Source: Narcine bancroftii
Lineage: Eukaryota
Direction: 5' to 3'
Length of the DNA: 64,000 nucleotides
NCBI RefSeq assembly: GCF_036971445.1
Contig: NC_091476.1
Coordinates: 97,960,001 to 98,024,000, forward strand
Below are positions 5,817-61,632 of the stretch, in pieces (within the stretch, counting starts at the first letter, position 1; each line of letters begins with the position of its first letter). Under the pieces are notes generated by a model. That model ran no database searches and had not been told where the DNA came from. It worked only from the letters and a program-made list of their open reading frames with translations. The position numbers and the translations under genes are program-made.

Positions 5817-7590
5817 TTAGTAGAGTTCGGGGGTCTTCCAAGACCACATGCTACTATTATCCATAAGAGCCTTTTTAACCAATTGTATCTCATCACAGGT
5901 AACTGGAGCAAGAGAAACTGGCTCGATAGGAGCAGCAGTGGGAGCAGAAGGCACAGTTGGGCCAGGAAGACTCAAGAGCTGGGGATGATGTTCCCATGCT
6001 TTTCTCTTATAAAGGGCATAAATGACTGCAGTAGGTTTCCCATCAATATCACTTTTAGGTACGCCTAACTTTAACAAGGTTAGAAAAAGGTCCCTTCTTG
6101 TCGGTCCGTTATTAGCAGCAGGCCCTCTCTTTTCATCCTGCTTGTCTGATTTAACCTGGGTTGTACGTGAGTGGATTTTACCTCCCAACTCTAATTCTCG
6201 AGGCCCAGATAAGGCATGCACCACCTCAGACACAGGGTGCCCAATTAACGGACTAGTTACGGACAGAACCAGTCCCCATACAGTGGGTTGGGCGGAACGA
6301 ACCAATCGGGTATGCATCCGGACGTGAATATCTCTTCATCAGGGCTCCCCCATGTACCCACAGCCTCAAACGCTCTGCATACAAGGCAGAGGCCAGGGCC
6401 TGTTGACGAATTACTGCCATACCCTCCTCTGGGGTGCCCCAATTGTTCTGCAAATGTAAATCCCAATCTACTGGTGATGGGTATACTCGTAGCAGGGCAT
6501 CCCCTAGAGTGGCAAGTAAGTAATCCACCTCTCTTCCTCTACCCCGCAGCTCAGCAGTGACCCGGATATCAGTAGTCAATGTTCCTAATCCCAACAATCC
6601 CTCAGGGGTTAAATATACATTACCCCCTCTTTGCTCCCAAACATGCAGGAGCCAAGCCGCAAGAGTTTCTCCTGCCTTTTGCCTAAATCGATCTCCAATG
6701 GCAGCCAGCTCTTTTATAGAGAAGTCACACATCATTGACTGCTCTTGACCTCTGCTCCCACTTTGGCCCACAGGGTCCTTTGCCCAGTGGACGGGACGAG
6801 GCCTAGGCCATCCCATAGAGGGGGTGGACCATTGAGCATAAGCAAGGGTTTGGGTACCTTCTCCTGGGTCCTCTAGTGAGATCAGGGGATCATCTACCTC
6901 TTCAATCTCATCAGTTACATTCCGCCCCTCTCCCTCTCTGTCTGTTTGGAAAATCTGCTGCCTTATAGGGCGGGTATGAACAGTGGGTGGAGAGGGTAGT
7001 ATGTTAGGCACATGCTGAGGAGTATCTGCATTATTACCATTGTCATCATTCCAGATATTCTCGTCCCAATCATCAATTACATCAGGATCGTCGCCATTCC
7101 TTATCATGGCACGAATACGATGTGGATCGGGTTCTACCCCTTGCTTTTCCTTATCTGCACAGAGCTGCTGCCAGAGTTTAAAATTATGGCAAATCATTTG
7201 GACATGCTTATCCGCCCATTCTTTGGCTCGGTCCTCACTGGTGCAAACAATCTCGCTCATCATGGAACAGTGTTGTCGCATGGCTTCTATCTCCTCCTCT
7301 AGTTGCTCTCTCTTGTGCTGGGATTCTACTTCTTGCTGTACAGATTCTGCTTCACGCTGAACGATGTGGTGCAAGGCTGTGGCCAGCAGCCAAAAACCAT
7401 CCATCAGTGTCCCCTTCTTAACAGGAAATTGACTTTCTCGAAGGAGATTGGCAACCCGAGGTGCACTTGATGGATCTAACCTCTCATCCCAACTAATGGG
7501 TGGTCCCAACAAAGACAGAGTATTGGCCAACATGCCAAACCCATCATCTTTGGAAGTCCATCCCGGAATCAAGAACTGCTCAGGGCTCAC
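5817..7590 (-). pseudogene. gag: ERV gag (ERV-L/Fv1-like capsid), split by a frameshift near 6253-6317
   Basis: 445-aa ORF with a coiled-coil and FSIKELAAIGDRFRQKAGETLAAWLLHVWEQRGG, which resembles ERV-L gag; continues in ORF 5817-6317 (TRRDLFLTLLKLGVPKSDIDGKPT). Confidence 0.85.
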
Positions 7591-7621
7591 CTCTTTCTTT
7601 CAATGAAGCATCTTGAGACCA

Positions 7622-7641: not shown

Positions 7642-8280
7642 TGTCTTGGGTAAACTTATTCCTCTCATTTTGATCGTTTTAGATTGGTCACAGTGTTTGA
7701 GCTACCGAAAGAAAATAGACACACACACCGAGAGCAGTTCAGTTTATACAAGGCTTTATTACTAAAGCTAAAGCTGAATTCACTCTACAATATGCAAACC
7801 CTTCCCAATTATACTTATCAACGCCTGGACTGGTCCCAACTGCCGAAGCGAGGCAATGATTGCACACTTGCAGTAGGTTGTCTGGGCGCCGGTAGCAACT
7901 TCTCCACCTCTCCCGACCGGGATGTTGGTTGGAGTCTAGAAGTTCTTCTTGCTGAGAGATGTTGCCACCTCTTAGAGAGTCTCAAACTTCAGCAGTGGGA
8001 CCATGGCTTATATTACCCAAAAATTGTTTACTCATAGCTTATCTCTTTGAATAAATGATTTAATTATCTTCAAGGTCTCCTGACAGTCAGAGACACTGGA
8101 TCTCTGGGCCTCATGGTGGAAATTAGATTATGTCTTTCTATTCAACTGCATCCCTGAGCCCCATGGTGGAATTTAGATTATGTCTTCTGATGCAATTGCA
8201 TCCCTTGTTGCATAAGCTGGTCTAAATCCTCCATTACATAGCTGTATAAGGATTACTGTGTTTCTTCCATTTATTCCTTG
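7642..8280 (-). repeat. 5' LTR of the ERV (U3 boundary uncertain)
   Basis: Ends in CA next to the PBS. Minus-strand AATAAA at about 7755-7760, TATA-like ATATAAG at about 8007-8013, and a roughly 49-bp tandem repeat at 8112-8207 (U3 enhancer-like). Confidence 0.6.
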
Positions 8281-8288
8281 GATATAAT

Positions 8289-11200
8289 TGTGGTGATATG
8301 TAATTACACCACTAGGTCACCAAGGTTCATCCCGGTGACCTTGTATATAAAGCAGTCCAGAGCTAAAGTCTAGCCTTCTAGGTTCATCTTACAGAGAAAC
8401 AAGATATCTTAGTGTGCATATTAGTTTATTAAAGCTGCCTTATACTTGCACTGCTGGTGTGGTTATTGTCAGTAAAATTTAATAAATTAATATGATAGCT
8501 ACTAGGATAGAAGCTGCTTCTGCTCCAATGCACATTCCTGACCACCTGGAGACTCTTCCTGAGGAATGAAATCCGGAGACAATCAGCACGCACATGCATC
8601 GGAGGTCAGAGACAGCAAGGGACCGCTGTACTAGAATCGTGGTGAAATGTGGGGAAGACCACAGAAGTACGATAGGGCAGGTAAGAAATGGCCAAGAGCC
8701 CTGCCTGCCCATGGGCTCACCAAAACAGGTGCTGCCAACCCTAAACCTCGGTCTGATCAGAAAGGGGCCACTACAAGCGCGGGTGGAAAGATCTCCACAA
8801 GTCGTCCTCCCGATCACCACGTATGTGCAGAATTCCTGACCACTCCAAGTCAAGGAAAGCAGACGTCGCTACCGTCACTCCCCCAGCAGTAGTTTCCCCA
8901 GTACCAATGCTACCACTGTGTTCTGCCTAAGCCACTGCAAATGTCCCAATGCCAGAGACCCAGCCAACAGCCCCATGCTCCCAGGTTACTCCTCCAGCAG
9001 ACACAAGCCCCACAGAGGCTTTACCAGCATCTCCCAGTATCCCAGGGTCCGCCCTTGCTACACCTAGATCCAGAGACCACATGGAGACCGGGAACAACCC
9101 CCAGGGTGCCCCCACGTTACCTAAGGGATCAGAGACTGCAACTTAGCCATGCACTGCGACCAGGCAGGCTGGAGCTTGACTTCAGAAATCCTGGAGCCGG
9201 CACGCACTTCAGCCTCTGGCGGAGATGCTTTCTGAATTACGTGGAGGGTGCTGAGGCATCGGATAAAGAGTTATTAATGCTGCTGTTAGCGCAGCTGGGA
9301 GACCACCCTTACTCCCTTATACAGGATGTCAGGTCCTACCAAGAGGCAATGAGCATTTTACAGAGGCATTACAGTAAGGGGCATAATGAACTCCACTCCC
9401 AGTACAGACTCATGACCAGGTCACAACAAGTGACCAGAGACTTTATACTCTCTCTGAAAGACCTGGCGAGAGGCTGCAACTTTAAAGCAGTATCAGCTCA
9501 GGAGTATGCGGAGGACTTTATTACAACAGAATTGTTGCGGGCATACGGTCCACTGAGACGAGATATCGATTGCTGGAGAAAGGAATGGTGGGGCTAGATG
9601 AGGCAGAGACTATCGCAGAAGCTTTAGAAAACACCAGGAAAGAATTGGAGGAGTACTCACAGGACCCTGGGGCTGGGACAAACGTCACACTGCTGGACTC
9701 TCTAGCCCCAGGAAAAGTATGCTGCCTCACAGGAATTCACAGCAGCAGCAGCACCTTGAGGGTCCCAAGTGCTTTTTCTGTGGACAAAGAAAGCACCCCA
9801 GAGCCCTCTGCCCTGCCAGAGAAAATGCCTGTTCCAACTGTGGAAAACGTGGGCATAATGCAAAAGTCTGCAGAAGCCCCAAGGCCACAGCCAAAATCCA
9901 TTCTCATGCCAATGAGAGGCAGGAAAGCTCTTCTTTCTCCACAGAAACAGAAGAAGAAGAATGCCATGTGCAACCAGCCATCTTGGACAAATGCTACAGA
10001 GCAGAGTAGTCTTCAGGAGATGAATATGATGCTGAGTACTATCGGATGGAAGGACACGAAGGACATGCCAGACTTGCTTCCCTATGCATGAATCAGGCGA
10101 GTCCACACAATTTATCTGATGCCACTGTGTGCAACAAAATTAATGATGTGAGGGTAAATTGCTTAATAGATAGTGGAAGCACTGAAAGTTTCATTGACCA
10201 GGGGTTAGTCAACTGCCTTGCCCTCCCCACACGCCCGAGTGAGCACTGGATCCTGTTAGCAGCCAGCACCCTTGCGGCTGAGGTAAAACAGTTTTGCAGG
10301 ATTACTCTAGAAATCCAGGGCACAAAATACAAAGGGTACAAATTACGAGTACTCCCTCACATCTGTGCCCTGGTACTATTGGGGTTAGATTTTCAGTGTC
10401 AGTTAGAAAACATTACAATAGTGCACAACGGGCCTCACCCCCCACTACGCCTTACGAAGAAACAACACTGCAGCCTGTCTGTCCTGAACATAGAACCCCT
10501 TCCACTGTTCACACACCTGACCCCAGAATGCACACCAATAGCCACAAAGAGCAGGAGGTGCAGTCTTCATTAGGACAGAGGTCCGCATGCTACTACAGGA
10601 GAACATCATAGAGCAGAGCACCAGCCCCTGTAGAGCCCAGGTGGTTGTAGTCAAGTCAGGAGAAAAACTGCGCATGGTAGTGGATTACAGCCAGACAATC
10701 AACAAATTTACACGACTAGATGCCTACCCCCTGTCATGCATAGCAGACATGGTCAACAACATTGCGCAGTATAAGGTGTTCTCCACCATAGACCTGCAGG
10801 CAGCATACCACCAACCGCCCATTAGAAACAGCGATCGCATTTACACGGCATTTGAGGCAGATGGCAGGCTGCATCAATTTATGTGACTCCCCTTCCGTGT
10901 TACCAGTGGAGTGTCCCTGTTTCAGAGAGAAATGGACTGAATAGTAGATGAGCTCCAACTGAAAACGGTGTTCCCCTACTTCGACAACGTGACAATCTGT
11001 GGCCACATTCAGGAGGATCATGACACGAATTTAAAACGCTTCTTCCAGGCAGCCGAGGAAAGGAACCTAACATACAACAGGGATAAATGCGTCTTTAGCG
11101 CCAGGAAGTTGCCAATCCTGGTCTACATAGTGCAGAACGTGGAAATCAGCCCAGACCCAGCCCATATGCGCCCTCTCCTAGACCTCCCAGTGCCACACAC

Positions 11201-12366
11201 GCTGAAAGCACAAAAAAGGTGTTTGGGACTGTTCGCTTACTATGCCCAATGGATCCCCAACTACACCGACAGGGACGGCCCACTTATAAAAGCCTCAGTT
11301 TTCCCACTATGCCCAGCAGCCACCAGAGCATTCAGGGACATTAGGGACCATATCGCTAAAGCTACCATGTGGTCCATAGATGAATCGATCCTGTTTCAAG
11401 TAGAAACAAATGCATCGATGTGGCTCTGGCAGCCCCCCTGAACCAAGATGGACGACCGGTGGCCTTTTCCTTGCGAACCCTACAGGGGTCAGAGGTAAGA
11501 CACTCAGCAGTAGAGAAGGAGGCCCTAGCCATTGTGGAAGCCGTAAGGCACTGGCGACATTTTCTGGCATGCAAACACTTCACCCTCGTCACGGACCAAG
11601 GGGCCAACTAATGTTCGATAACCACAACAGGGGGAGAATTGAAGAACGACAAAACCCTGCACTGGCAGATAGAATTGTCTACATTTAACGACGACATTCT
11701 ATACCGCCCCGGGAGCCCCCGGACGCGCTGTCCAGAGGCCATCTTTAACCACACGTCCCAGTTGCAGAGCTTGCACTATGAGCTGGACTGTTTCACTTTA
11801 TTAAAACCCCAGTCCTCCCATTTTCGGTAGAGGACGTGAGGTTAGTGAACAAGAGCTGTGCGAAATACAAACCACAATTTTACCAGCCAGACAAAGCTAC
11901 CCTGATCAAAGCTACCAAACCTTTTGAGTGCCCCAGCCTCGATTTTAAAGGATCGCTCCCATCCAATAATAGAAATGCCTATTTCCTGAACGTAATAGAT
12001 GAATATTGTTTCCCCTTCGCAATCCCATGTTCTGATGTATCAGTAGCCACTGTTCTCAAGTGCCTCCAACCCATCTTCAGCATATTTGGGTACCCGAACT
12101 ACATACACACAGACAGGGGTGCTGCATTCATGAGCGCAGAAGGACAGCAGTACCTGCACGAGAGAGGGATTGCAATTCCTAGTGCAGCCAATGCACGTTT
12201 TGAGGAATGCCCCCAGTGCCCCCCACCCCGATGACAGTGCGACCACACCAGAGTGGTGGGTGCACCAAGTCACAGCAGTCCAGTCCGCAGACAGAGCCTC
12301 AGGCAAAGCTGGCCCCAACACTGTAACTTGACAACTCGGGAGACCTTGAGCAAGGGAAGGGGGAAA
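8289..12366 (+). mobile_element. Degenerate Ty3/Gypsy LTR retrotransposon (element G1): 5' LTR 8289-8476, gag-PR-RT-RH-IN, PPT; 3' LTR absent
   Basis: LTR starts TG, with TATATAA at about 8344 and ATTAAA at 8428. Gag LRPGRLELD.. with zinc knuckles CFFCGQRKH..C and CSNCGKRGH..C; protease LIDSGS; RT LRMVVDYS and PYFDN; RH EKEALAIVEAVRHWRH; IN LDFKG and HTDRG, C-terminally deleted. PPT-like AAGGGAAGGGGGAAA at about 12352-12366. Confidence 0.9.
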
Positions 12367-15800: not shown

Positions 15801-18800
15801 TCTGAAAGAATTTCATTGGCTATACCTCTCCTCTCAATTTGGTGACTTTCATTATAGTTGATAGTTGTTCCATTTCCATTAGTAAATAATTCAAAGAAAT
15901 AGAAATAAATAATTAACATTAAAAATGTACACTAGGTCAATCAGGATCTGGGAGGAAAGTTAATGTTTTGATATGAACAATTAATCAACATCAATCCACA
16001 CAATTAACAAATTACAATAACATTCCTGATATCCCAACCAACCAATTTTCCCTTGCAACCGTGTCTGCCTGTCCCGCATCGGACTTGTCAGCCACAAACG
16101 AGCCTGCAGCTGACGTGGACATTACCCCTCCATAAATCTTCGTCCGCGAAGCCAAGCCAAAGTTTGGTATCCAGTACCTACAGGGATGGCAGATTTTCCA
16201 GTTGAGTGAGACTCACTCTTACAATGCCTAACTAATACATCTGCATTAAGAAAACACAGTTTAAAAGACAAAAGACAGTGCAAAATGTAAAGAAATTAGA
16301 AAAAAATTATGTTGTACTTGTTAATTATGTAACATTAATTATGTAGAGTGATGAGAGACCACTCTGACTGACCCACGAAAAGGGTTGTAATTGCAGAAGG
16401 AGGTATTTGTCTAAAAAGGACATTTCTCTGAAGCCCCTCAATAAGAATTTCATGAGTAATTAACATTCTGTCACCCACAGTCTCTGTCACCCACTTCAGA
16501 CACTGAAAACTTCATCGTAAAGCCTGTATGTCTGACCCATCTTAAATACTGCATCTCTGACCCATCCAAGGCCTGTGAATCACATTCATCTAAAGCCTAC
16601 GGGTCACTTCAATTTCAATTCAGTGTCATCACTGAATTTCTGAAACTGAACTTTGAACTTTGGAGAATTGAGCCTTGAGCTGTAGTGGCTTGTGTATTCT
16701 ACATACACCATTATATTCACGCATAGTTGGAGTATAAATTAGATAATTGTATATAAATTTGGTTAAGTTTAGATAAGTTAGTTAAATTAGAGTAGGTGTC
16801 ATATAATTGCTGATTAATAATTAGAAATATTATTTTAATTATAACACCACTTGGTTTAATTTTTATCACTGCAGTTGTGTTTGTAACACCATGTTAAGCA
16901 ATCTCTATGCCATAGGTGCTCTGTGATTAGTAAGGGATTGCTTAACGTGGTATATAGGTGGAAAGAAAAAGGCTTGAAAACTACTGTTTTAATCGTACCT
17001 AATTGACTTGTTATGTGCATGGTTTCATAACTCCAAAGGAAATGGGCCAGAGACAATTTTTCTCAAGCAAAATATTTCAGTAACAATTGGGTCCAGAGCA
17101 GTGATTCTCAACCTTCACTTCCCACTCACCAACCACCTTTCCTTCCCTTACTAATCACAGAGCACCGATGGCATAGGGATTGCTAAGGTGGAATGTGAGT
17201 TTAGGGGGGCAGTTTGAAAACCACTGCTCTAAAATATACAGGTTTGTTGGCTCATTGAGTGGCACAGATTTCAATTTTCAATCGCTGGAATTGGCTGCTA
17301 CCAGGTTGTAAAATAATAAAAATAAATTAAAAACTCAACGCAAGTTCATTCTTGTAAATGTCAAGAAGACATTTGTCAATAAGGCAGCTGCTCCATAATT
17401 CTCTCTAATTTTCGCATCCAACAATCCATGAACATGATCTTTAACTTAACATTTTCCATCAACATTACAGCCAAGCTTAGATCAAACCCAAGATTCCTTT
17501 TATTGTCATGTAATAATACAAAAAAATGTAACATACATGAAATTTCCATTTGCTTCCTTAAGGCAAAGAGTCATTTTTAGTATTGCCCGGCACCCCTAAT
17601 AATAAGAGAAAGAGAATCAAAAAAGTGTCCCTTCAGAGACACTGAAACTACTAAATTTACTTTAAGTTGGAAGAATAAGTAATACATCAATCTTTGATTA
17701 TCCTTCTCAAATACAAAAGAAAATATTTACAAATCATTTTGACCTAAAGGGCACTCGGTACATTGCATACCTCCACCACGAGAAACACAACATTCAAAAT
17801 CTTTTACTTCACACACCTTAAAGTCTATATACCTTCCAGTGTCCATTTTTTTTTACACAAGAATGATGCAGTATGAAAATGGCCTCATCAAGTTTGTTCT
17901 GATTTTCCTGTAGCTATTTTTACAAATTTAATGCTATTCCTTTTTTTAAAAGGAATTGCACCATAGTGAGACAACATCAACTATAGCAATAATAAAGTTG
18001 ATTACATGCTTCTTTAAGAACAACTGTGAGAAGTTACAATACATTGAAAGAGAACCCTGAGCAAAATTATATAATTTCAGCGTGGCTTTACACACGTAAA
18101 TTCAAGAATGCTTTTTTTGTTAGTCTGCCTTTTGAAGTTCTCATGTTTTATGAAACTGACAACTATGATAAACAAAATAATTAACATAATGACAAAAAAT
18201 AGCTTGGAGTAATTGTTCAGTTGATTTCTCTTAAGAATTTACATATTTTTATTTCTCATCTATGAATATTGAATCTATTAGAAACCAGCTATTCTGCTAT
18301 TAGAAACCAGCTAGAAACCTGACCTGAGCTCCTGACACCCAACTCCAAAGACTGAATCCACCCCTCAGTAGTCGGCCTACAGGTGCACACCAGAGCTCCT
18401 GACGCCGACTCCAAACTTCCCCTTGGCAGTCAGCCTACAGGTACATACCAAACTCCTGATGCCCGACTCCGAAGGCCGAACCCTCCCCTAGCCAGTTGGC
18501 CTACAAGTGCACAATGGAGCTTCCAATGCCAACTCTGTCTATCTGAACTGTGGGGCACAATTTGCTCTCCAAGGTGGGTAGAGTTTTAAGTAAGTTCAAT
18601 TCTTGTCCTGAAGGCCAATGGGAAAGAACATAAATACCTTATCTTTGTTATGTTGATTTATTCTATGTAAGACTGGGTGATGAAATATCCAACCAATGCT
18701 TTCGTCTTCCATGAATTGCAATAGTTAGCAATGCCAAAATGCAATTTGCCAAGCAATTATCTAAGAATACTAAATGGTACTGTAACATATTAATGAAAAT

Positions 18801-31500: not shown

Positions 31501-34500
31501 TCCTGATGTATGCATCTTTGCTGCTCAGGTGTTCCAGGGCTTTGTGTAGAGCCAGTGAGAAGACATCTGCTGTAAACTTGTGTGATAGTACAGATCTATC
31601 ACCAATGTACATAGTGTATATAGTTACTGTATCTAGACTGTGCTTACAGCGATTGGCTGAGAGCTAAGCCACACCTATTGTTTGGGCCTTAAAGGGTTGT
31701 GTCCCTAGCCAGGTCGGATCATTCCGGACTGGTCGGCCACCTGTGAAGAGCTCCGGTCTTTTGCTAATAAAAGCCTTGGTTTGGATCAACAAGTCTTTGG
31801 TTCTTTCGACGAGCTCTACAATTTTATTAGCAAAAAGAATTTTTTTTGAAAGGGATGGAGCGTTTAACTCGGCCAGAAAAACTTGATATCGACCCACAGT
31901 CAGCTACAGCCTTCAAAGCCTTTAAGTTCTGGCTGCTGAACTTTGAAAACTTCCTGAGATTCATTCAGGTAGAGGAGGATAACCAGCGTCTAACAGCATT
32001 GCTGTCTATGGTGTCCTTGAGAGTCTACGAGAACATCCAGGATGAGACCACTTACACCGCAGCCATAAAGGTACAGAAGGAACTGTATGATCAACCGGTG
32101 AACAGAGTTCATGCCCGGCTCATGCTTGCGTCGAGGAAGCAACAGCCCGGCGAGTCCAGCAGGGCATATTTACAAGTATTAAAGGCATTGGGCAAGGACT
32201 GTAACTGTGTGGACAAAACTGCTGCCGAGATCACTAGCGACCTCGTCCGGGATGCCTATGTGGCCGGGCTCCGGTCGAACGAAGTGAGGCTGCGTTTGCT
32301 CGAGCAAGGGGTAGAAAAACTAGAGGACGTGGCCCGGATTGCAATCACAATGGAGGATGCAGCCTTAAAGTCCACCGAGCTCTCTAGGGACTGGACCCCT
32401 CGTTCTGATGTGAGTAGAGTGCCCTTCTACCCTACCCCTGACGGCCTTTCGGCTGCTGCTACCCTGCCCCGTGCGAACCCGAAATGTTATTTCTGCGGGA
32501 GGGACAAGCACAGCAGATCCCAGTGCCCAGCAAGAAAAGCCAGGTGCCAGAAGTGCCTTAAAAAGGGCCACTTTGCTGCAGTCTGTAGGTCTAAAATGGC
32601 CGCCAGCAAACACAGTGCCTCGTGTGAAGCTCAACCGCCACTATCCCATTCAAACTCTTCTTCCCCAGAGCTCTCGTCCAATGAGAGCGAGGGCTCCCCT
32701 GCACGGCAACGCCTGACGTCACGGAGACGCCGAACCCGGAAGGGGCAACCCACCGTCGCAACCATGGTGATGGCCTGCCTCTCGCCCCCGTGCGGAACAC
32801 TTGACACTACCGCCGCTGCTGCCGCTGCTGCCGCCGCCACAGCCACCCCCGGGGCCGACGCTGCCGCCGCTGCTGCCGCCGCCACGGACACCCCCGGGTC
32901 CGACGCTGCCGCCGCTGCTGCCGCCGCCACAGCCACCCCCGGGGCCGACGCTACCGCCGCTGCTGCCGCCGCCGCCACGGACACCCCCGGGGCCGACGCT
33001 ACAGCCGCTGCTGCCGCCGCCACGGACACCTCCGGGGCCGACGCTACAGCCGCTGCTGCCACGCATCACGGATGTGGTGAACCAGATCGCCCAGTACCGC
33101 ATTTTCTCCACTATTGACCTACGTTCGGCCTACCACCAGCTCCCGATCCGCTGCGAAGACCGACCATTCACGGCCTTTGAAGCGAATGGGCGGCTATATC
33201 AATTTCTCAGGGTACCATTCGGGGTCACAAATGGTGTCGCGGTCTTCCAGCGGGAAATGGACAGGATGGTGGACCAGAACGGGCTAACCGCTACCTTCCC
33301 GTATCTGGACAATATCACCATCTGCCGCCACGACATGCAGGACCATGAACCAACCTAGACAAATTTCTTCAACTGCCCGTCAGCTAAACCTGACTTACAA
33401 TTTGGACAAGTGTGTTTTCCGGACCACACGACTCGCTATTCTAGGTTGTGTGGTGGAAAACGGGATAGTCATGCCAGATCCTGACCGCATGCGTCCCTTA
33501 ATGGACTTACCCCCCCCACATACCCAGAAAGCTCTCAAACGCTGCCTGGGCCTTTTCTCGTATTATGCCCAATGGGTTCCAAACTACGCCGACAAGGCAC
33601 GTCCTCTTATCAAGACCACCTCTTTTCCCCTCTCGACCGAAGCCACAGCGGCTTTCGATCGAATCAAATCTGACATCGCTGCTGCGACGCTGCACGCGAT
33701 CGATGAGTCTGTCCCGTTTCAAGTCGAGAGCGATGCATCCGACTTCGCCCTGGCAGCCACCTTGAACCAGGCCGGTCGGCCTGTAGCCTTCTTCTCCAGA
33801 ACCCTCCAGGGTCCGGAGAGTAGACACTCCTCGATCGAGAAGGAGGCCCAGGCCATAGTTGAAGCGGTACGTCGTTGGAGACATTACCTTGCTGGGAGGC
33901 GCTTTACACTGTTGACTGATCAACGCGCGGTCTCCTTCATGTTCAGCAACACCCAGCGTGGTAAGATAAAAAACGACAAAATTGCCAGATGGAGAATCGA
34001 ACTCTCCACCTTTAACTATGACATCCTGTACCGGCCTGGTAAGCTCAACGACCCGCCTGACGCGCTCTCCAGGGGGACGTGCGCCAGCATACAGATGGAC
34101 AGACTACGGAAACTCCATGAGGCGCTCTGTCATCCAGGGGTCACTAGGTTTGCTCACTTTGTCAAGGCGCGCAACTTACCCTACACAGTTGAGGAGATCC
34201 GCTCCATGACCCGAGCCTGTTCGGTGTGCGCCGAATGCAAGCCCCACTTCTTCCGTCCGGATAACTCCCACATCATCAAAGCCACCCGCCCCTTCGAGCG
34301 TCTTAGCGTAGACTTTAAGGGACCCCTACCGTCGACCAACTGTAATACCTACATCCTTACGGCCATCGACGAATACTCCCGCTTCCCATTCGCTGTGGCC
34401 TGCCCAGACACCACTGCCACCTCAGTGATACAGGCCCTTCACAGTATTTTCACCATCTTCGGGTACCCCAATTCCATCCACAGTGATAGGGGGTCCTCAT

Positions 34501-37500
34501 TCATGAGTGCAGAGCTGCAACAGTACCTTCTGGAGTGTGGTATTGCTTCAAGCAGGACCACGAGCTATAACCCACGCGGTAATGGCCAGGTCGAGAGGGA
34601 GAATGCCACCATATGGAGAGCGGTTACACTGGCTCTCCGGTCTAAAGGTCTCCCCACCTCTCACTGGCAGGAGGTTCTCACTAGTGCCTTACACTCCATC
34701 CGCTCCCTCCTATGTACTGCAACAAATGCCACCCCCCACGAAAGGATGTTCCTTTTCCCGAGGAAATCCGAATCGGGAACCACTGTACCGGCATGGCTCA
34801 CCGTCCCTGGCCCTGTCCTTTTGCGACGCCACGTCCGGCACTCAAAGAACGACCCCTTGGTCGACCGAGTGACTCTACTCCACGCGAACCCACATTACGC
34901 ATACGTGGAGTTCCCAGACGGGCGGGAGGACACTGTTTCGGTGCGGGACCTAGTTCAGGACGCGGTAGACCCAGCAAACCCCCCAACTCCTTATGCTCCA
35001 GGCCCCGTGCCGCAACAGAAGGACCAACAGCACCCCAATGACTCGGGCCACCCTGCCGACAAAACGACTGGGGAATTGAGCGACGGAGCAGTCGCACCCG
35101 ATGAGCCCGCTGGCGACACCACTCCAGCGACCCCAATCCCGGCACCACGGCGGTCACGCCGGATGGTCAGACCCCCTGACCGCTACAGTCCTTGACCTAC
35201 CCCTTCCTTTTCATTCTCTCCCTCGTTTTTGTTTTTTTTTCCAGGGTCAATTCTCCAAGAAGGGGTGAATGTGATAGTACAGATCTATCACCAATGTACA
35301 TAGTGTATATAGTTACTGTATCTAGACTGTGCTTACAGCGATTGGCTGAGAGCTAAGCCACACCTATTGTTTGGGCCTTAAAGGGTTGTGTCCCTAGCCA
35401 GGTCGGATCATTCCGGACTGGTCGGCCACCTGTGAAGAGCTCCGGTCTTTTGCTAATAAAAGCCTTGGTTTGGATCAACAAGTCTTTGGTTCTTTCGACG
35501 AGCTCTACAACTTGTTACTATGATGGGTACCACTCAGTCAGGAGCTGATCTGCTCCATCACCAGCCTTTCAAAACACTTCATCACAGTTGATGTAAGTGC
35601 TACTGTTCGATGGTCATTAAAGCAGATTTCTACACTCTTCTTGGGCACTGGTATGATTGATGCCTATTTGAAACAGGTGTTCAAAGGCCAGAACTGAAGA
35701 GATGTTCAAAGCAAACTTACTTTCAGCACTGTTTAATATTGAAAGAAGCAACATTTTTTAAACATCTATTATCGGTTTCATTAAAGATAATCACAGCTTT
35801 TAAACCTTTGGGTATGATTGAAGCAGTCTGCATCCAAAGTATTTGATGACCATATTCTAATTGGAATACTGAGTCAGAATGTAAAGTGAATTGATAGGTT
35901 GGCTTTTAGCAGAAGTGGAATCTTTCAACAAACAGTTAAGTGCCTTAAGGCAGAGCTAAAATGTGAGTAATAAAGTCTGATTAGTGAAGCAGAAGAAGAG
36001 TTACCCAATCTCAAACTGGTTTAGAAATAGGAGATACCTGTGAATGTCGTTACAATTGCAGCACAGAAGGCATGGCAGCCGTTTTATAATGCAGCAGGGT
36101 CCCACAAAGAGAAATATGATATAAAAACATACAATGCTGGGAAAAGTCTACAGGTTCAGGCAGCATCTTTGAGGAGTGAAAAGGAGTTAACAGCTCAGAA
36201 AGAAGCAATGTGGTAATGGCCATATATATTGTATTTGTTTGTGGTGAATGAAGAACAAATATCGTCGTGACCAAAGCAAAGTCATGGTAAATCCATTTTG
36301 GGGCCAAAAAAAAGTTGAAATGTAAAACTTTGTCTGAAGGATAGCATATCATAAAATTATGCATTTTCTTGATATTGCACTGAAGTGTCAGCCGAGCCTT
36401 TGGGCGTGAAGTTTCTGGGCATCCGTCTGACTCAGTGTGCCCAATCAATCCATGGTGATGGTTTCATTCGAGAAAGCAAAGGACAACCAGTGATAATTGT
36501 CTAATAATTACAATTTATAATGAAGGATTGAAATTTGAGATTGTTGGATTTTAAGTTATGTTTTTTTTCCAGATCCAGTTAATGTAACCACTGAGATGAG
36601 GTAAGAACTCTATTTTACTTTGGCCATTATAATTTTATGCAAATATTTTCATACTGACATTTAACGTGTACATTTTACTAATGTGTTTATAATATGCTGT
36701 ATGTTGAATTATATTTGTTGAATTTGATTAGTATATTTCACATTCCATCTGATCATTCAAATGCTAATTTCTATAATTTTGAGGACCCAAAATTCAACTG
36801 AAGTGCTGTGACTATATATGAAAATGACTGCAAAGAATCCTGAGAATCTTATGAAGATAATCTAGGGTGTCAGCAGTGAAGGAGGTGTTGGCAGTCTTAG
36901 ATGGTGTCAATGTGGATAAATCTCTAGATCCAGGCAGGAACTCCCAGGAAATTGGGGGAAGACAAGAAGGACACTTTTAAAAATATTTTCATAGATTCGC
37001 AAAATTCAAACAAACAGTATAATCTTTCAACATTTGTACAATATACAGAGTCGATGTTTATTTCCCCCTCACCTCCCACCCCAACCCCACCCTCAACCTA
37101 CTGAAAAAACGGTCAATTAAATTGTACAAGTATAAATTCTGTGGGGTCATAGACCCTTACAGAAACCTAGGAAAAAACATCCACAATGGCTAAATAACAA
37201 AGACTAAAAAAAAATTAAAAGGGGAAAAAAAACAAAACTAAACTAAAAAAACCATGTTGTCTGCGCTATCTTCAACTTTCTTGGTCACTTTTGTTTCCCT
37301 GCTAGGACGGATTGCTATCGTACCCCTATTTCAAAGTGGAGGTGGGGGGGCTAATCAATCTGTGTGCCAATATATTTCAAATAAGGTTGCCACACCTTAA
37401 CAAATGTGTCGTGTTTCTTGCTTAGATTGTATGTGATTTTCTCCAGGGGAATGCAATTCTGCATTGCCATATTCCATCATATGGTCTATAGTTGGGAGTC

Positions 37501-40500
37501 AGACTTTCACGAAACCTCCATACACTTCCGCCAATGCAATCTTCAAGAGCGGAAATTGTTCTTTGCTCAATCTAAAACTCACATCCCCAGTATCTCCTGC
37601 AAGGTACAACACCAGATCCTGTGGACAATCCACTTTTGTAATTTTTTTCAGGATATCCTCCAGGTCTTCCCAGACATAGCCAGGTGGAGTGGACAAAAGT
37701 TCCAACCTCCACTTGACATCTAAAGAATCTTTCTAAAATTGCAGGCTTTGATTTGTGTATTTTTTGTGGTGTGAGGTACAACTGGTGTAATAAATTGTAC
37801 TGCACCAACCTGTTTCTGGCATTGACGACCTTGAGGTGCCCAAGTCCGACTCAAATCTCTCCCTCAACCTGACACTGTTAAAACCTTGACAAACATTTTT
37901 AATTCTTCACTGAACTCGCGAGACATTTCAGAAGAATGCAAATATGATGCCATTAATGAAAAAGTCTGTAAAGATAATTCGAGTAGCTATACTCCTTTTA
38001 GTCTGACATCAGTGGTGTGGAGTGGATTCTAAAAGATAGAGTCTATGAGCATTTGGATGGCTAGGAGAAAATTAAGGTGAGGCAGCATGAATTTATGTGG
38101 GAATGTCTCACAAACTTGATAGAACATTTTGAAAATGTGTCAAGCAGGATAAGTAGATGAGGGCAAGGCAATTGATGTTATTTAGTTGGATTTTAGAAAT
38201 GCATTTCATAAGTTGGTGAAGAAGGTGAGAGCACATGGGATAAGAGGCCAACTAGTCACCTTGACAAACAATTGGCTTAGTAATAGGAGTTAGAGAGAGG
38301 ATCTAGATAGCAGCTTTTCAGACTGAAGGGCCTTGACTAGTGGAGTACCTCAGGGTTTGGTTTGAGGACTCTTGCTTTTGATTTTATATATGTATATATA
38401 ACATGTACTTATCACAGCCGGTGCAGACGGCCGTGCCCAAGCGCCAGGGCCGGCTGCCAAAGCGACAAGACATGTAGCCGGTTCTGGGGGGGGGGGGGAG
38501 GTTGTATGGTGGCGCACATCGTCATGGCATACCGGCCCACTTGTATCGCCGCGTGGTGGGGCAGCCATGGGGAAATGGGGTTGTCAGAGGTTTCTCTCTG
38601 ACTCCAGTATCCCTTCTAGCAGGCGCCCTGGGCAGTGTTATGATGTCACAATGCACCAGGTGCCCTTAAAGGGGCGCACTGAATTGGAATAAAAACAGTC
38701 ATTAACAACCATCGGTGTGGTAGCAGTGATTTCCTTCAGCTCCTGCAATCGCCACAGTGGTGACCCTGATGGGCCCAGACGTCTATCTGGACCCAGTGAA
38801 CGATGGACGCAGCCGAGGTGAGCACAGTAGCCATCAAACATCCCCCTTCTGGCCCCACTGCACACAGACATGGTTCGGGCAGGCGGAGGCACAATTCTAC
38901 CTCCGCAACATCTCAGCCGACGCCACAAAATTTTACCTCGTCGTGGACGCGCTGGACCAGGACACGGTGGCGATGGTGAATGACATCATTCACAGGCCAC
39001 CAGGAGTTGGCAAGTATACCGCCATCAAAAATCTACTCCTGGGGAAGTTTGGCCTCATGCCACAGCAGCATCCTTCCAGGCTCTTACGCCTGGATGGGTT
39101 GGGAGATTGCAGCCCCTCAGCCCTATGGACAAAATGTTGGCCCTGACGGAGGATCATGAACCGTGTTTCCTCTTCCTCCAGATATTTCTTGAACAGATGC
39201 CAAAAGATACCCGGCTTAATCTGTCCGAAGAGGCCTTTCCCGACCCCCGCAAGGCCGCAGCCTCTGTCACACAAAACAGTAGAATGAGGCAGCCCTACGC
39301 CAAGTCTCCAAGCCGGGGCCCCGCCATCCACAGGATACCACCAAGCACAAGCTGGAGGAAACTCAGTCAACACAGTGCTTTTATCACCAGCACTGGGGAG
39401 TGAAAGCCTGCATCATGCCCCCTCTTTTCACGCTGATTGCGATGAAAGAGAAGATTCTGGCTTGGTCGGAGGAGGCAGACGAGGCCTTCCCTCCAATGAA
39501 ACAGGCCCTCACAGAGGCAACTTTGTTGGTGCACCCTCTCCCGGCAGTGCACACGGCACTCTCGGTCGATGCTTCCGCCACAGCGGTCGGGGGAATACTG
39601 GAACAGTGGCTGGACAGGCAGTGGTGCCCGCTAGCCTTTTTCAGTAGGCATTTGCGGCCGCTGGTGCTTAAATACAGTGCGTTCGATGGGGAGCTCCTGG
39701 CGCTGTACCTGGCCATCCGCCACTTACGATACTTCTTGGAGGGCAGAACTTACACCGTTTTTACCGATCATAAGCCCCTCACCCAAGCACTGGCTATGGC
39801 CAAGGACCCGTGGTGGCCCAGGCAACAGCGCCATCTGTCCTACCTGTCCGAATTCATGGCAGACATCCGGCAGAGGGAGGGCAAGGACAATGTGGTCGTG
39901 GATGCTCTCTCTCGTCCGGCCTCAGCACGCTAGCTCCCGGCCTCGACTATGGACAACTAGCGCAGGTCCAGCAGCACGATGCCGAAACTCAGGTCTCCAG
40001 CTCGAGGATATCCATCTTCTTGACTCCACCCAGCCTCTACTCTGCGACACTTCCACCGGCTCACCATGCCTGGTAGTCCCACAAGAGTGGAGTGCGAGGG
40101 TCGTCAGCTCTATCCACAATCTCGCCCACCCCTCAGTAAAAACTATCATGCATATGGTGGCACATCGATTCGTCTGGCATGTCCTCAAGAAGGAGATGGC
40201 AGCGCTAACCCACAACTGCATCAGGTACCAGATGTCTAAAGTCCACAGGCACATGCCAGCCCCTGTTCAACATTTCAACTTGGCAACACAGAGGTTCCAC
40301 CATATCCACGTGGATGTTGTGGGCCCCTTGCAGGTGTCCAGGGAGTTGCGGTACCTGTTTACCATAGTGGATGGAGCAACCAGGTGGCCGGAAGCCATCC
40401 CGGTCCGTGAGGCGTCAGCGGAGATGTGTGCTAGAGCCTTGGTCAGCTAGTGGATCTCTTGTTTCAGCGTGTCGGTGCACATCACGAGTGACAGATGCGC

Positions 40501-43500
40501 CTAATTTCCCACTATGGTCGCAGCTGGCAAAGCTTTTTGGGGTAACACTGCACCACACGATGGCCTACCACCCACAGTCCAATGAGTGAGTAGAGAGGTT
40601 CCACCGACTCCTAAAGTCTGCTCTGATAGCAAGACTTTCCGGCCCCGACTGGGTGGACGAGTTGCCTTAGGTTCTCCTTGGAATTAGGATGGCGCACAAG
40701 GAGGACCTGCAAGCCTCATCAACAGAAATGGTTTACGGCGTGCCACTCTCCCTGCCAGGTGAATTCTTCACACCGGAGGCCGAAACGACACACAGCGAAG
40801 GTGATCAGCTCGCGGACCTCCGTAAACGACTGGGCAACCTCACCCTGCTGCCCCCATCACACTACGGCACCCCACCATCCCATCAACGGAAAGATCTGGC
40901 TGAGGCGCAATTTGTGTTCGTCCGGAGAGGACCACAGAGAGCCCTGCTGCGGCAGTTTCTTCAATCTGAGGCGCCTGCAAGCTCACACCAAGACACAAGA
41001 GCAACTTGTCCGTGAACTACTCTTTGCAGACGATGCCGCTTTAGTTGCCCATTCAGAGCTAGCTCTTCAGCGCTTGACGTCCTGTTTTGCGGAAACTGGC
41101 AAAATGTTTGGCTTGGAAGTCAGCCTGAAGAAAACTGAGGTCCTCCATCAGCCAGCTCCCCACCATGACTACCAGCCCCCCCCACATCTCCATCGGGCAC
41201 ACAAAACTCAAAACGGTCAACCAGTTTACCTATCTCGGCTGCACTATTTCATCGGATGCAAGGATTGACAATGAGATAGGCAACAGACTCGCCAAGGCAA
41301 ATAGCGCCTTTGGAAGACTACACAAAAGAGTCTGGAAAAACAACCAACTGAAAAACCTCACAAAGATTAGCGTATACAGAGCCGTTGTCATACCCACACT
41401 CCTGTTCGGCTCCGAATCATGGGTCCTCTACCGGCATCACCTACAGCTCCTAGAACGCTTCCATCAGCGTTGTCTCCGCTCCATCTTCAACATTCATTGG
41501 AGCGACTTCATCTCCAACATCGAAGTACTCGAGATGGCAGAGGCCGACAGCATCAAATCCACACTGCTGAAGATCCAACTGTGCTGGGTAGGTCACGTCT
41601 CCAGAATGGAGGACCATTGCCTTACCAAGATCGTGTTATATGGCGAGCTCTCCACTGGCCACCGAGACAGAGGTGCACCAAAGAAGAGGTACAAGGACTG
41701 CCTAAAGAAAGCTCTTGGTGCCTGCCCCATTGACCACCGCCAGTGGGCTGATCTCGCCTCCAACCGTGCATCTTGGCGCCTCACAGTTCGCCGGGCAGCA
41801 ACCTCCTTTGAAGAAGACCACAGAGCCCGCCTCACTGACAAAGGACAAAGGAGGAAAAACCCAGCACCCAACCTCAACCAACCAATTTTCCCCTGCAACC
41901 ATTGCAACTGTGTCTGCCTGTCCCGCTTCGGACTTGTCAGCTACAAACGAGCTTGCAGCTGACGTGGACATTTACCCCTCCATAAATCTTCGTCCGCGAA
42001 GCCAAGCCAAAGAAAAGAGAAGGGGGGCAGGGAAGAATTGTTTACTGTGGACCACTTAAACGCTGCTTATTTACTTATCACAGCCAGTGCAGATGGCCGT
42101 GCCCAAGCACCGGGGCCAGCAGCCAAAGCAATAGGATGCGTAGCTGGTTCTGGGGGGCGGGGTTGTGTGGCGGCACACATCCTCATGGCAAACCGACCCC
42201 GCTTGTATTGCCACGTGGCGGGGCAGCCATGGGGAAATGGCATCGTCAGAGTTTTCTCTCTGACTCCAACATCCCTTCCAGCGCCTGCCCTGGGCAGCAA
42301 TTACGATGTCACAATGCACCAGGTGACTGAGCTCATGCTGCCCTTAAAGGGGCGCGCTGAATTTGAATAGAAACAGTCGTCAATGACCTTCGGTGTGGCA
42401 GCAGTGATTTCCTTCAGCTTCTGCAAGCACCACAGTATATTAATTTGTGGAAATGTAAGTTTGATTATGACATGAAAAGATATGCAGCAGTGGACAGAGA
42501 AGAAGGTTACCTGGTTTGCAACATTCCAAATCAATCAGTGAATGTAAGTGTTCAATGTTTGACAGGACAATTTAAAAGTAATAAAATTATATTTAAAATA
42601 AATATATACTGAAATTAATGGGCTCTTTGACTTAAATTGCCAGAGATTTCATTTTGAGTAAAGTAGTCAGTGAAATCTGGACCATTAGTTTCTAAAAATA
42701 ATTTTAAATTAATTAAGATTATAGATGAAATAATTATGGTTAAAAGGTTTGCTTTGTTGTATGATGACCACACAAGACGACAGAATTAATTTTTCATTGT
42801 GACAATGAATAAGAAGACCTGCAAAACTATATGGATCTTGAAACACTAAAGTATGTTCATGAACTAAAACATCATCCTTTTTTTAAAAAACTTGGATTCA
42901 GGATTCCACACTGAAGGACATTTGAGCAGATCAGGAGGTGCTGGTATATTAATCCCTGGCTCTTTATAATCTAGCTCAACGCAGGAAACTGTTAACAAAA
43001 CTATATAAATCATAGACATTAATCTTCGTCCGCGAAGCCAAGCCAAAGAAAAAGATAAATCATAGGAGTAAAGCCAACTGTTTAATTAAAATCACTTTCA
43101 AATTAAAATTTCTGATGTGTAATGATTGTATTAACAAGTACAAATGGGGCAGCTTAAAAATAGCTGTGGTCATGATAACAATGTGGTTATACCCATTGAT
43201 GTTAAACATAAGTCTCATCAACAACCCTGCAAAAGTTTCAGTCGCTTCTTGTCTGCAGAAAGTTCCTCAGTGAATCCCACAATTTTGCTTTCTGTTGATA
43301 AATTTTCTCCAGATTGATTAGATTAAGAGTGAACCTCTGGTTTGGTAAATATCAGTTTATCTAATTTCTTAACTCGTATTTTGTAAAATTGGCATAAAAT
43401 AATGTTTGCAATTACCTACAGCATCAACTTAGTGGATGCCATCACAGGGAAATTACCACCCAAGATACTGGAAATACTCAGCAGGCAGCATCTGTGAATT

Positions 43501-46500: not shown

Positions 46501-49500
46501 AGAGACAGTCAGAGCTGCAAGTGCTGCCAGAACTCACCGGAGCCCTGCTCCATCACCTCATGGGGCCGCTCCAGGCATCTCCTGGGGCGGCTCCGACACT
46601 TCCTTATCGACGTTTCTGGTGAGTTCCGCCACTGCACCCCTGGAGACAGTGTAAAGAGAATGAAATGAAGTTGACTGTGTTTTCTTCTGAAATATTTTCC
46701 ACTTTGTATTGATTTATTTTTTTATTTCTGTCTCTTCAAGTCCAGAAAGCATGTATTCAAGTGCAAATGACCACATAGGTACGTACATTGTATACAAATA
46801 AATAATAATGCCTGTTAAAGTTTATCTGCAGAAATATGGAAATGTCACATGGCAGCCCTCCAATCTCCATGTCCTCAAGGATGGACAAAATTTGTGCTCG
46901 GTGGACTAGTTTTAGTTCAAAGCTGGAGACTGTCATTCAAGGTTATTAATGGCACTTCGTGAGAGGAAGTGCCAGGTAATGTTAGGCATGCAGCGGTATC
47001 AGCCAGAGTATGTCACCTATTTCATGTCAATTGTGAAAAGACCCACGAGCACTGAAATTGGTATTAATCAGTGGGTTAAGGCCTTCTTTAACAGCAGTTA
47101 AGGATGCAACTTTATCTGGGCCATAACATGAGAGACAAGGCATTCAGTGCCCTCCTGTTCCATCATTATAATTGCTCCCCCTGTTCCTGCTGATGTAATC
47201 AAAACCATCACATCCCACTACTGGGTATCAGCCCAGAGCCTTGCCCCCAACTTCTCCCATCCACTACTCATCTAATTCAACAGACACTGGGATATAATAT
47301 GTACTGTGCAGGAACAGTAGGAATGGAACAAAATGAGGTTCGTGTAGTATGCCTAAGAGAAACTGGGTGACTTCGGACACATAAATTATCTTACTTTCCA
47401 ATTCAGTACTCAGTATGGGAGTGGAGGATGGAGAAGGGGTGAAGGATGATGGGCAGATGGGGCCAGTTGGGGGAAGGGTAAACTTCAAGTTGAGAGACAG
47501 GGGGAGGTGAGTGATGAACGGAAGCAGATAGACAAAATATAGAAGAAAAAAAAGCCAGATGGTCAGGTGGGGAGAAGGGAGACTGAAGGTTGAGACAGCA
47601 AGGAGGGTGATGCTGGAATCTGATCAGGAAGGAAGGTGATGAGGGGAACCACTAGGAGAGAGGCAGTGGGCAGATAGCACCAGATGGAAGAGGGCACCCA
47701 GAGCGTGTACTATTTGGGAAGTAAGTTGATAGAACCAACAGGGGAAGCTAAACAAAACTGCTGATGGAGGGCTGTTGATGAGTAGTGGGAAAGGGGACAA
47801 TAATGCAAGGACATCAGGTGGATGGGATAAAGAAAGAAACAGCTGCAGAACACAAGAGGTAGGGAATTAGCTGAAACTGGATTATTCGCTGTTCACACCA
47901 ATGTGCCGTGGACTACTTAGAGAGAGAGAGAGAGAGTATGAATAGTTGTTCCTCCATGTGCCTTTGTGCCTCATGCAGGCAATGGAGCAACCTCATCAGA
48001 TTGCATTTAAACTAGTGGTTCTCAACCATTTTCTTTCCACTCACATCCCACTTTGTAATCCCTATACCACTGGTGCTCTGTGATTAGTAAGGGATGGCTT
48101 AAAGTGGTATGTGGTATGAAGGGAAAGTTGAGAACCACTGCTCTAGACCCAATTGTTACTGATATATTTTGCTTGAGAAAAATTGTCATTGGTCCATTTC
48201 CTGTGGAGTTATGAAACCGTGCACTTAATCAGTCAATTAGGTACAGTTAAAACAGTGGTTTTCAAACTTTTTCTTTCCACCCACATATTACCTTAAGCCA
48301 TCCCTTACTAATCACAGAGCACCTATGGTATAGGGATTACTTAAAGTGGTATGTGAGTGGAAAGAAAAAGGTTGAGCACCACTGATTTAAATTCACTTTG
48401 AATTTGCATGCAATCCTCTCAGTGCAACGTGAGGGCAGTCAAAGGCAACTTCAGGAAGCTCAAATCATCCGAAAGAGGTAAACACAGTGCTTTCTGTCTT
48501 GTTAGAAAGATGATGAATGTAGTCAAGTGTGTGATCACCTAAGATCAATAAAATTCAAAGCAAATATGTTCTTCACCTACCCCAACCTGTAAAGATACTT
48601 GAATCTCAAAAGTTGATGAAGATCCACCTCCCCTCTACTCGCCCTGCCCCCATGTACCTTTGATGTCCTCCACCTCATTTACATACCCTTTTGACCTTCC
48701 TTACAAGGCTCACCCAATTTTTCCATTAACCATACAATTACAAAGTAAAGCCTTTCAACACAAAGGGTTTTTGAGACAGATTCTATCTGCACCAGAGACA
48801 TCAGTAGTAGAATATTCCCTCCATAAAACAGGCATAGGTCCATTGGGCATTGCAAGTTTTCTGTTTGTTTTGGGGCTCAGAAGATTCCTAGCATTTTTCA
48901 CAGCTTTCTTGTGTTACGAGTCCAGAAGACCCCAAAACCCAGCAGCAATAGATATACACCAATACAAAGGGTTATTTAAACAAAAGTTGTTTTTAATTAT
49001 CTTTGAACATGGAAACAGAATCAAACTTTAACATCTCTATTGACTTACTTAACCTACTTAACCCCCTTCTAATTCTAAGCGCACGTGTGTGTAATGCATA
49101 TACAGGTACATAATCCTTTATCCGTACATCTAAAATCCGGAAAGCTCCAAAATCCGTTGAGGGGAGAGAGACGGCAGGGCGAGTCAGGTGGGTGAAGGGG
49201 GTGGGGGGGGGGAGACCGGCAGTGCGAGTCAGGTGGGCAAGAGGGGGAGAATGGCAGTGCGAGTTGAGCGGGTGACGTGGAGAGACTGGCAGCGCGAGCC
49301 GGGAGGGCGAGGGGGGGAAGACCGGCAGCACGAGTCGGGTGAGTGAGGGGGGTGGAGAAACGGTAGTGCGACTAGAAGAGGGTGGGGTGGATATGGCAGC
49401 ACAATGGGTTTAAATCTGGCTTTCCGAAATCCGGAAAAGTTCGAAATTCAGAACACACTGTCCCCCAAGGGTTCCGGATAAAGGATAAGTTTAGAAAAGT

Positions 49501-60600: not shown

Positions 60601-61632
60601 TCTGAAGTTTCCTCCTTTGGAAACTGTTCTAATGCAGCTTCTTCCCTTTCCTACATAGTGCTTAATAATCTTTTGGGCAATTTCCTTTTTTTTCATCCCA
60701 GTTTTTACTGTAAGAAGTTTTAACTTGTCAACTATAACCATCAGTTCTGACTTTTTAGCATTTTTAAATTAACCACTGAAGAGTTCACTATGAACTGGTC
60801 AATATTCATATTTGCTGGTTTTTCTGCTAGTGATTTATACACTCACCGTTTATTTTTAATTTCAAGTTGGAGGTTGAGTCAAACTCAGACAACTGATAAC
60901 TAAGCACAAGTCAATTGCCCCTACAGCTTCCAAATTATGCTACAAGATCAAACCAGCAACCACAAAGAAGGCATATCATACAGAGCTAAAGATGAACAAT
61001 GACTTTATTAACAAAAATTCACCTTCAAACTTTAATTCAAATCCCCCCTTTTATAACAATGCCCACTGGTTACTATGCAAATTTCTATAACAGCGTAAAA
61101 CTAATAAATTCCCCAGCCTAAATATAACATATGTAATTAAAGTCTAAGTTTTTTTTTTCCAACCAGCCCACAGAAAAACTTAGACACAAAACACACAAGA
61201 CTCTCAAAACTTTGATCTCAATCGAAGCAAAGATCATAAATAAAATTCAGTTTGTTTGGTAAACTGAAGCCAAAAGGTCTTTGAGAGAGAGCACAAAATT
61301 TGAAGTTCTCTTTTGTTGCTGGCAGACCAATGGCTTGGTCTGGATCCTTCTGGCTGCCTTCAGAATGTTCATCCATTTTAAAATGCCCAACATTCTAAAC
61401 TGTCTTCCAGGCAATGACTCATGTTTTGAGCCTCTTTACACTTCACAGCCACACCCAGTGGTGGTTTGTCCTCCATGTCCAGAAATTTTTAGATCATTTT
61501 CTGCACAGGCCCAGTCTGTCTCTCACTCTCTCAGCAGTCCACCTTCACCTTGGCTCGCTAAGGCAAACTGTCACTTTCCAACACAAAACCGCACAACACA
61601 TAGGCCAATACACAACACAGAACTCTGTAACA
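57611..61632 (-). mobile_element. Gmr1-like Ty3/Gypsy element (gag/SCAN-PR-IN order; RT/RH deleted), degenerate
   Basis: Diverged LTRs 57611-58258 and 60938-61632; 4-bp TSD AAAG; PPT AGGGGAGG. Gag YFQHFEKV..W..LKGKAQ..YELVPDAYRQKFR; protease ILWDTGA; IN CRTCHTCQ, VDCV, SAYHPESQGALERFH. Confidence 0.9.

Follow-up and report, generated by a model that had tools for sequence, protein, structure and literature searches.

A conserved helix between the LTR and the primer-binding slot of an animal Ty3/gypsy lineage, a probable self-primer for reverse transcription

An LTR retrotransposon requires a primer at the slot that follows its 5′ LTR. To our knowledge, gypsy elements of animals, the sushi group apart, have been assumed to depend on a host tRNA for this step. 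[quoted passage not shown] In the available descriptions of Tf1, this stretch of the 5′ LTR anneals to the PBS and is then cleaved off by the reverse transcriptase as a primer (PMC4600332, PMC5341516, 10.1101/2022.12.06.519325), and this primer is the very 5′ end of the RNA (10.1101/2022.12.06.519325). Self-priming has also been predicted, in the available text of PMC6317226, for TAR (Houba/Osr-1), plant Ty1/copia elements in which at least 10 LTR bases are matched 0–5 bp after the LTR. TAR belongs to the copia superfamily, is found in plants and has a separate origin.

The window considered here is a stretch of 64,000 nucleotides of Narcine bancroftii DNA (assembly GCF_036971445.1, contig NC_091476.1, positions 97,960,001 to 98,024,000 of the forward strand). 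It is repeat-rich and contains two short-LTR Ty3/gypsy elements, G1 and G2, together with G3, a gypsy element from a different clade (Table 1). The assignment of G2 is based on its LTR pair, polypurine tract, 5-bp duplication and RNase H domain followed by rve. G1 shows the same domain order in broken frames, with one LTR inside the window, and its relatives carry all domains. The G1 LTR segment CATATTAGTTTATTAAA pairs with TTTAATAAATTAATATG, located just behind the LTR, through 16 Watson–Crick pairs and one G–U pair (8424/8487), with mismatches flanking the helix at both ends. The G2 helix is exact and encloses a loop of 49 nt. The pairing check thus bears out the original prediction, which had described these pairs and both loop lengths.

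Table 1. Features of G1, G2 and G3 (positions within the window).
Feature	Positions	Strand	Remarks	Basis
G1 5′ LTR	8289..8476	+	188 bp; terminal dinucleotide one base off canonical in window copy	contig loose ends, 4 runs
TATA-like box TATATAAA, G1	8344..8351	+	90 nt before inner end of arm	
G1 5′ arm, predicted self-primer	8417..8433	+	ends in ATTAAA (8428–8433), sole A(A/T)TAAA of G1 LTR	
G1 loop, 44 nt	8434..8477	+	remaining R/U5 with G/T-rich stretch, LTR end, one spacer base	
G1 3′ arm	8478..8494	+	primer-binding slot (+2), no tRNA-type TGG	
G1 gag-pro-RT-RNaseH-integrase, decayed, several frames	8492..12234	+	3′ end and 3′ LTR absent from window	
G2 5′ LTR	31581..31820	+	240 bp; ATTGG 31652–31656; TTAAAGG 31689–31695	
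G2 5′ arm	31759..31772	+	includes AATAAA 31766–31771	
G2 3′ arm	31822..31835	+	primer slot, 14 Watson–Crick pairs	
G2 polypurine tract and 3′ LTR	35257..35509	+	3′ LTR 35270–35509 identical to 5′ LTR; 5-bp target duplication ACTTG	
G3 primer site, internal control	38758..38770	+	other gypsy clade; ordinary TGG type, no helix	

The limits of the G1 LTR were set from contigs of other copies in four public runs, using their heterogeneous loose ends. Unrelated sequences pile up before 8289 (203 contigs in run X1, 48 in X5 and 20 in X7), and behind 8474 the loose ends start with CA (127 contigs, X1). These limits agree with the predicted LTR of about 188 bp and with an arm starting one nucleotide past its end; a PBS with a tRNA-type TGG or another LTR boundary, either of which would have spoken against the proposed structure, was not found in G1. 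At the wobble position, the other copies are Watson–Crick paired at nearly all depth in all four runs (47, 18, 2 and 5 contigs). In run X5, which bears another organism label, a loose end reproduces the 5′ arm letter for letter while the preceding stretch differs, among the variants listed; the part of U3 with the TATA-like box is deeply covered in this run, and 8360–8411 much less so. A high-copy 50-nt tandem unit adjoins the G1 LTR on its left (8095–8250) and is absent from X5.

Several other elements and internal features of the window can be described. In G1, some 600–700 nt separate the PBS from gag-like sequence (8492–9170), the distance being 15–36 nt in most relatives. In G2, a GC-rich repeat based on a 9-nt unit (32766–33105) replaces the protease and the first part of RT without closing the gag frame, which reads on as an Ala/Thr-rich tail; with its identical LTRs and intact cis signals, G2 is a young copy that is non-autonomous. 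G3 (38403–42436) has a TGG-type primer site and LTRs that are 80% alike; it contains about 1 kb of sequence (40960–42010) which we take to be LINE-like and whose 3′ part recurs at 16050. On the minus strand, a decayed LTR element (57611–61566) has repeats about 90% alike and gag-like and integrase-like frames with no RT frame between them, and frames of 448 and 172 aa with a coiled-coil-like, gag-like look lie at 5817–7599. The inverted-repeat elements at 16888–16951 and 48013–48370, with helices of 14–19 bp, are likely MITE-like.

Could the G1 pairing be fortuitous? Anchored dinucleotide shuffles never reached the G1 helix (0/400), and unanchored shuffles never reached 16 pairs, either over 8289–8560 (0/400) or over the AT-rich core 8400–8510 (0/1000, best 14). 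Stems of this length are thus not common in shuffled controls, a point on which the original prediction could have failed. The G3 primer site forms 6 Watson–Crick pairs, and 254 of 400 shuffles are equally good. Chance complementarity, or the relic of an old inverted duplication, would be in keeping with the A/T-rich arms, with a folding energy of the whole region (201 nt) that is not unusual (z of −1.36 for G1 and 0.03 for G2), and with the other long helices of the 64-kb window, where seven of the nine listed helices of at least 13 Watson–Crick pairs (loops up to 100 nt) lie outside the G1/G2 junctions, one of them being longer than the G1 helix. The proposed folding of the 5′ region has therefore a mixed outcome, the energy being ordinary and the stem itself beyond shuffles. 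An Rfam search over 8250–8600 gave no match at E up to 1. The case is carried by position and covariation rather than by folding energy.

Relatives were searched with a 52-protein alignment as query, which yielded 80 metagenome loci and 8 genome-bin loci; a search of viral contigs returned none. Five bacterial genome bins (G001–G005) each contain 3–151 matches to eukaryotic retrotransposon pol, and thus carry much host DNA. A match to the gag N-terminus or an LTR pair was present in 35 loci, of which three at contig edges (L009, L010 and L088) were excluded. An uninterrupted helix of at least 10 Watson–Crick pairs is found at the LTR–PBS junction in 29 of the 32 others, duplicates and sister copies included; the helix is interrupted in L031 and L058 and absent from L078. 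A stricter set comprises 19 elements, from about 10 families, with an LTR end fixed by the LTR pair or by reads. In this set, 16 elements have 10–19 Watson–Crick pairs, with 0–2 of 400 shuffles as good, the misses being L031, L058 and L127. The helix starts at +2 in 13 of the 19 and at +3 or +4 in three more. As a control, the same LTRs paired with their own 3′ flank reach only 3–7 pairs (16/16). For 12 families without a second LTR, shuffles as good were 0/60 in ten, 1/60 in one and 4/60 in one. TGG occurs in none of 21 helix-bearing families. Other gypsy clades show the opposite picture: TGG lies within six bases in 22/22, pairing is limited to 4–6 Watson–Crick pairs, and the helix is found in 0/22.

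Among 12 further in-clade regions, L123 has no helix, L119 has 10 Watson–Crick pairs, L124 and L127 are doubtful, and eight had no gag N-terminus match and were left out. L127, a weak, decayed copy with an interrupted helix, still forms 8 of 9 pairs at +2, and AATAAA comes directly after them. L124 and L127 are a long-branch sister pair; a compensatory change between them (9 Watson–Crick pairs, 3/1000 shuffles) was considered and dropped, since the L124 junction resembles a deletion that seems to join the LTR's own end to the leader. Counting L078 and L123 (no helix) and L031, L058 and L127 (interrupted) as counter-examples, the helix is a trait of the lineage and is not confined to G1 and G2.

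Covariation was analysed in 21 families, all helix-bearing, with one representative each and the register set by eye; the set excludes L078, L124 and L127 as well as sister copies and the three loci at contig edges, and pairs were counted without a MAFFT alignment of eight junctions, in which L082 was misplaced. Counting from the inner end, each of positions 1–13 is paired in 20–21 of the 21 families, with up to four pair types per position. The PBS forms on average 12.6 of 13 Watson–Crick pairs with the arm of its own family and 8.3 with a foreign arm, 12 being reached by 10 of 420 foreign combinations. The excess over this cross-family baseline extends to position 16, with none from 17. Between G1 and G2, pairs 4, 7, 9, 11 and 14 have changed on both sides, and either arm placed opposite the PBS of the other element forms merely 8–9 of 14 pairs; the earlier observation that pairing is kept while the two LTRs differ in length and sequence is thus substantiated, with both sides changed at 5/14 pairs. 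Within one family, L021 differs from L022 and L023 by one pair changed on both sides. In L070 the arm ends in GAAGA opposite TCTTC, so that the hexamer is lost and the helix kept. Throughout a deep clade the register is the same and changes are compensated; added to the shuffles, this refutes chance or an inverted-duplication relic, whose probability we regard as negligible.

The helix is therefore selected or maintained by replication, lineage-wide. Selection rather than chance had been proposed from two copies; the rejection of chance now stands on far broader evidence, and the copying mechanism discussed below may share in the upkeep. G1 and G2 had also been presented as independent replicates, which goes too far: both fall within one shark/ray subclade in a quick tree (SH-aLRT 97), so the helix was inherited and not re-invented in G1.

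The junction has further near-fixed features. CA and one more base precede the 3′ arm in 20/21 families, the exception being the window copy of G1. The inner end of the 5′ arm reads ..AAA followed by R-C-C-T in most families, matched by GCT at the start of the G1 loop, and a small second hairpin starting at +1/+2 is present in 14/21 families, against 2.4 expected from base shuffles. A G lies ten bases before the predicted cut in 20/21 arms, in the context T-T-(A/T)-G-(T/C)-T, which presumably resembles an initiator; this G could be a register mark for RNase H or an initiator-like start. The arm start TCATTT of L005 was considered as a perfect initiator and dropped, another base being found in its 3′ LTR and in L016. 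The first ATG lies 15–22 nt into the PBS side in 10/21 families (a count without chance expectation), and the helix might additionally gate translation. In the window copy of G1, the first ATG after the LTR is formed by the last three bases of the 3′ arm, and its frame stops after 25 codons.

The slot lacks TGG, it varies with each family's own LTR, and the 3′ end of the arm faces U5 at a distance of one base. By analogy with Tf1, these properties point to a self-primer for reverse transcription, which is probably the main function of the pairing. The TAR rule (at least 10 LTR bases, 0–5 bp after the LTR, no TGG) describes G1 (17 bp) and G2 (14 bp) as well as 16 of the 19 relatives. As in Tf1, the RNA would fold back and bring the 5′ arm onto the primer slot, the element's RNase H would cut directly after the arm, and extension from the new 3′-OH, first over the spacer base and then through U5, would yield a short DNA that is transferred to the 3′ repeat. 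The primer would be copied into the plus strand, so that changes in the arm would be carried into the PBS; the perfect match may thus be kept in part mechanically, and not by selection on each pair alone. In L018 the same arm mismatch is present in both LTRs and the PBS is unchanged; in the group of L018, L019, L038, L055, L058 and L062, a mismatch at pair 14 is common to four of the six copies. Few as these copies are, their mismatches are consistent with a zone of roughly 13 nt that is corrected by copying.

The primer might also be a fragment from inside a tRNA or a different host RNA, the LTR match being then a regulatory decoy. Half-tRNA primers without TGG are indeed described for some plant copia lineages in the accessible part of PMC6317226. 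However, the PBS changes family by family in step with the LTR arm, which makes a host-RNA primer very improbable.

A comparison of the self-primer with Tf1 also reveals differences. Pairing in Tf1 involves 11 nt; here it extends over 13–16 nt or more. An inner R-C-C-T hairpin would be stacked at the predicted cut, and the arm ends in a likely poly(A) hexamer, both unlike Tf1. The pretzel flanking duplexes of the Tf1 type were not found as ungapped Watson–Crick pairing in the 21 families (4.1 versus 3.8 in shuffles, and 4.0 versus 4.2). TATA-like boxes lie 84–90 nt before the predicted cut in G1 and G2, and the remaining 19 families have none upstream of the arm. From the usual TATA spacing, the G1 RNA is expected to start near 8375–8380, which suggests that the RNA of both elements begins about 40 nt upstream of the arm, and not at the arm as in Tf1. 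Such a start would leave a long unpaired primer tail, which is a difficulty for the Tf1 scheme.

Those ~40 nt could alternatively supply the homology for the strand jump if the primer were the arm copy of the 3′ LTR, the RNA circularising and its 3′ repeat being cut after the hexamer. This would agree with the presence of the arm in both LTR copies and with a TATA spacing that leaves R upstream of the arm in G1 and G2. In a 1-kb G1 RNA, however, the local 5′ helix is predicted at 0.93–1.0, and a partner 4 kb away would lose to it; no precedent was found in the literature as far as it is accessible. We therefore regard priming by the 3′ LTR as improbable, and the local 5′ arm remains the preferred candidate.

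The hexamer at the inner end of the arm raises the question of poly(A) masking. A hexamer lies in a stem near the RNA 5′ end in the polyA hairpin of HIV-1 too, as described in the available text of PMC12789967. HIV-1 primes by tRNA, whereas here the partner strand of the hexamer is the PBS, present only behind the 5′ LTR. In HIV the hairpin lies inside R and forms at either end of the RNA. In the present lineage, the arm ends in a likely hexamer and its complement follows the 5′ LTR only; the signal would thus be hidden at the 5′ end and free at the 3′ end. Neither the G1 nor the G2 LTR contains a second hexamer, and G/T-rich sequence lies behind the one in the arm. Computed pairing of the G1 hexamer is 0.96–1.0 with the PBS and 0.14–0.31 in the LTR alone; the asymmetry is weaker in G2, since the last hexamer bases of its 3′ LTR are still 0.5–0.8 paired (computed).

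Masking, the role proposed for the HIV-1 polyA hairpin, might even be the true function, another RNA acting as primer. A(A/T)TAAA ends the arm in 12/21 families and TAAA is found in most, the computed masking is specific to the 5′ end in G1, and retroviruses with a signal in R require its suppression, according to the available part of PMC12789967. On the other hand, in nine families the helix persists although the arm has no A(A/T)TAAA (and in seven of these the scanned stretch has none at all), and L003, L004 and L084 have a canonical hexamer unmasked in the loop. A fixed +2 register is unnecessary for masking, the PBS letters track each family's own LTR so that no common host primer fits, and the pairs retained in the decayed copy L127 stop short of its hexamer. 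A purely HIV-1-like role is thus quite unlikely. With 9/21 families devoid of the hexamer, its replacement in L070 and three families where it is unmasked, masking is not the general reason for the helix; next to self-priming, it would be a second role at most, and we give this slightly less than an even chance. The hairpin had originally been described as a poly(A)-signal structure: the hexamer is indeed in the G1 arm, and the main job of the helix is more likely in the primer slot.

In a tree of RT/RNase H obtained by quick maximum likelihood (55 rows, none of them from a chromovirus), the helix-bearing elements and named animal proteins fall into one clade of 36 rows, apart from 19 gypsy rows (SH-aLRT 100). 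Neither PBS nor RT placement makes the lineage a member of the tRNA-primed gypsy clades Mag, CsRN1 and Gmr1-like, to which we presume the 19 rows to belong from their PBS and layout. The pol of G2 shares 76–78% identity with proteins assigned to Hypanus, Scyliorhinus and Mobula, and the wider protein relatives, known here from proteins alone, are named from sharks/rays, molluscs, cnidarians, a nematode, a rotifer relative, a crinoid and an insect. No Chromo match was obtained in four pol-bearing proteins, the full C-terminus of G2 included; a chromovirus control was also sought, and its two Chromo matches had no pol nearby. RT/RNase H scores 186 bits against Ty3, compared with 212, 294 and 320 for three tRNA-primed elements, a rough comparison that speaks against a grouping with chromoviruses. 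Because of the missing chromodomain and the low Ty3 score, together with the lack of pretzel flanks and the 13–16-nt pairing, self-priming in this lineage likely originated separately from that of Tf1/sushi, as judged from sequence and from a tree without chromoviruses.

Cigr-1 or a MolGy clade of the metazoan Ty3/gypsy elements, compared by description, provides a naming lead only; we take the short element and short LTR to be in keeping with Cigr-1. Cigr-1 is reported from Biomphalaria and cephalopods in the accessible text of PMC6238403, and these hosts recur among those of our protein matches. The available parts of two Cigr-1 accounts (PMC6238403, PMC8556966) do not mention a PBS or primer. 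The accessible full-text literature, which also included parts of PMC3601003, PMC8220671, PMC5006619, PMC13524379, PMC6934838 and PMC12471100, covers self-priming for Tf1/sushi, Tcn1 and TAR copia and contains none for this animal clade; this absence carries little weight, since the search did not extend to most subscription papers, to entries in Repbase and GyDB, or to the original publications on Tf1, sushi and Cigr-1.

A joint reading of all these data can be proposed tentatively, although as a whole it is rather doubtful. An animal-wide gypsy lineage outside the chromoviruses would have made its own invention of self-priming, with the poly(A) signal as primer; the helix would conceal the 5′ poly(A) site during transcription, cover or abut the gag start codon, and then be cut after the hexamer. 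In shark/ray members, priming would rely on an inner part of a capped leader of about 55 nt instead of the first RNA bases, a form not described for Tf1.

If the lineage is self-primed, it would represent a further independent origin of self-priming, in a widespread group of animal elements, and it would offer no tRNA-complementary site for tRNA fragments to target, as far as the accessible accounts of such targeting go. It would also be a compact natural case in which one RNA helix couples the choice of poly(A) site with priming. The slot of this lineage explains why PBS scans overlook such elements, and it provides a simple rule for their annotation.
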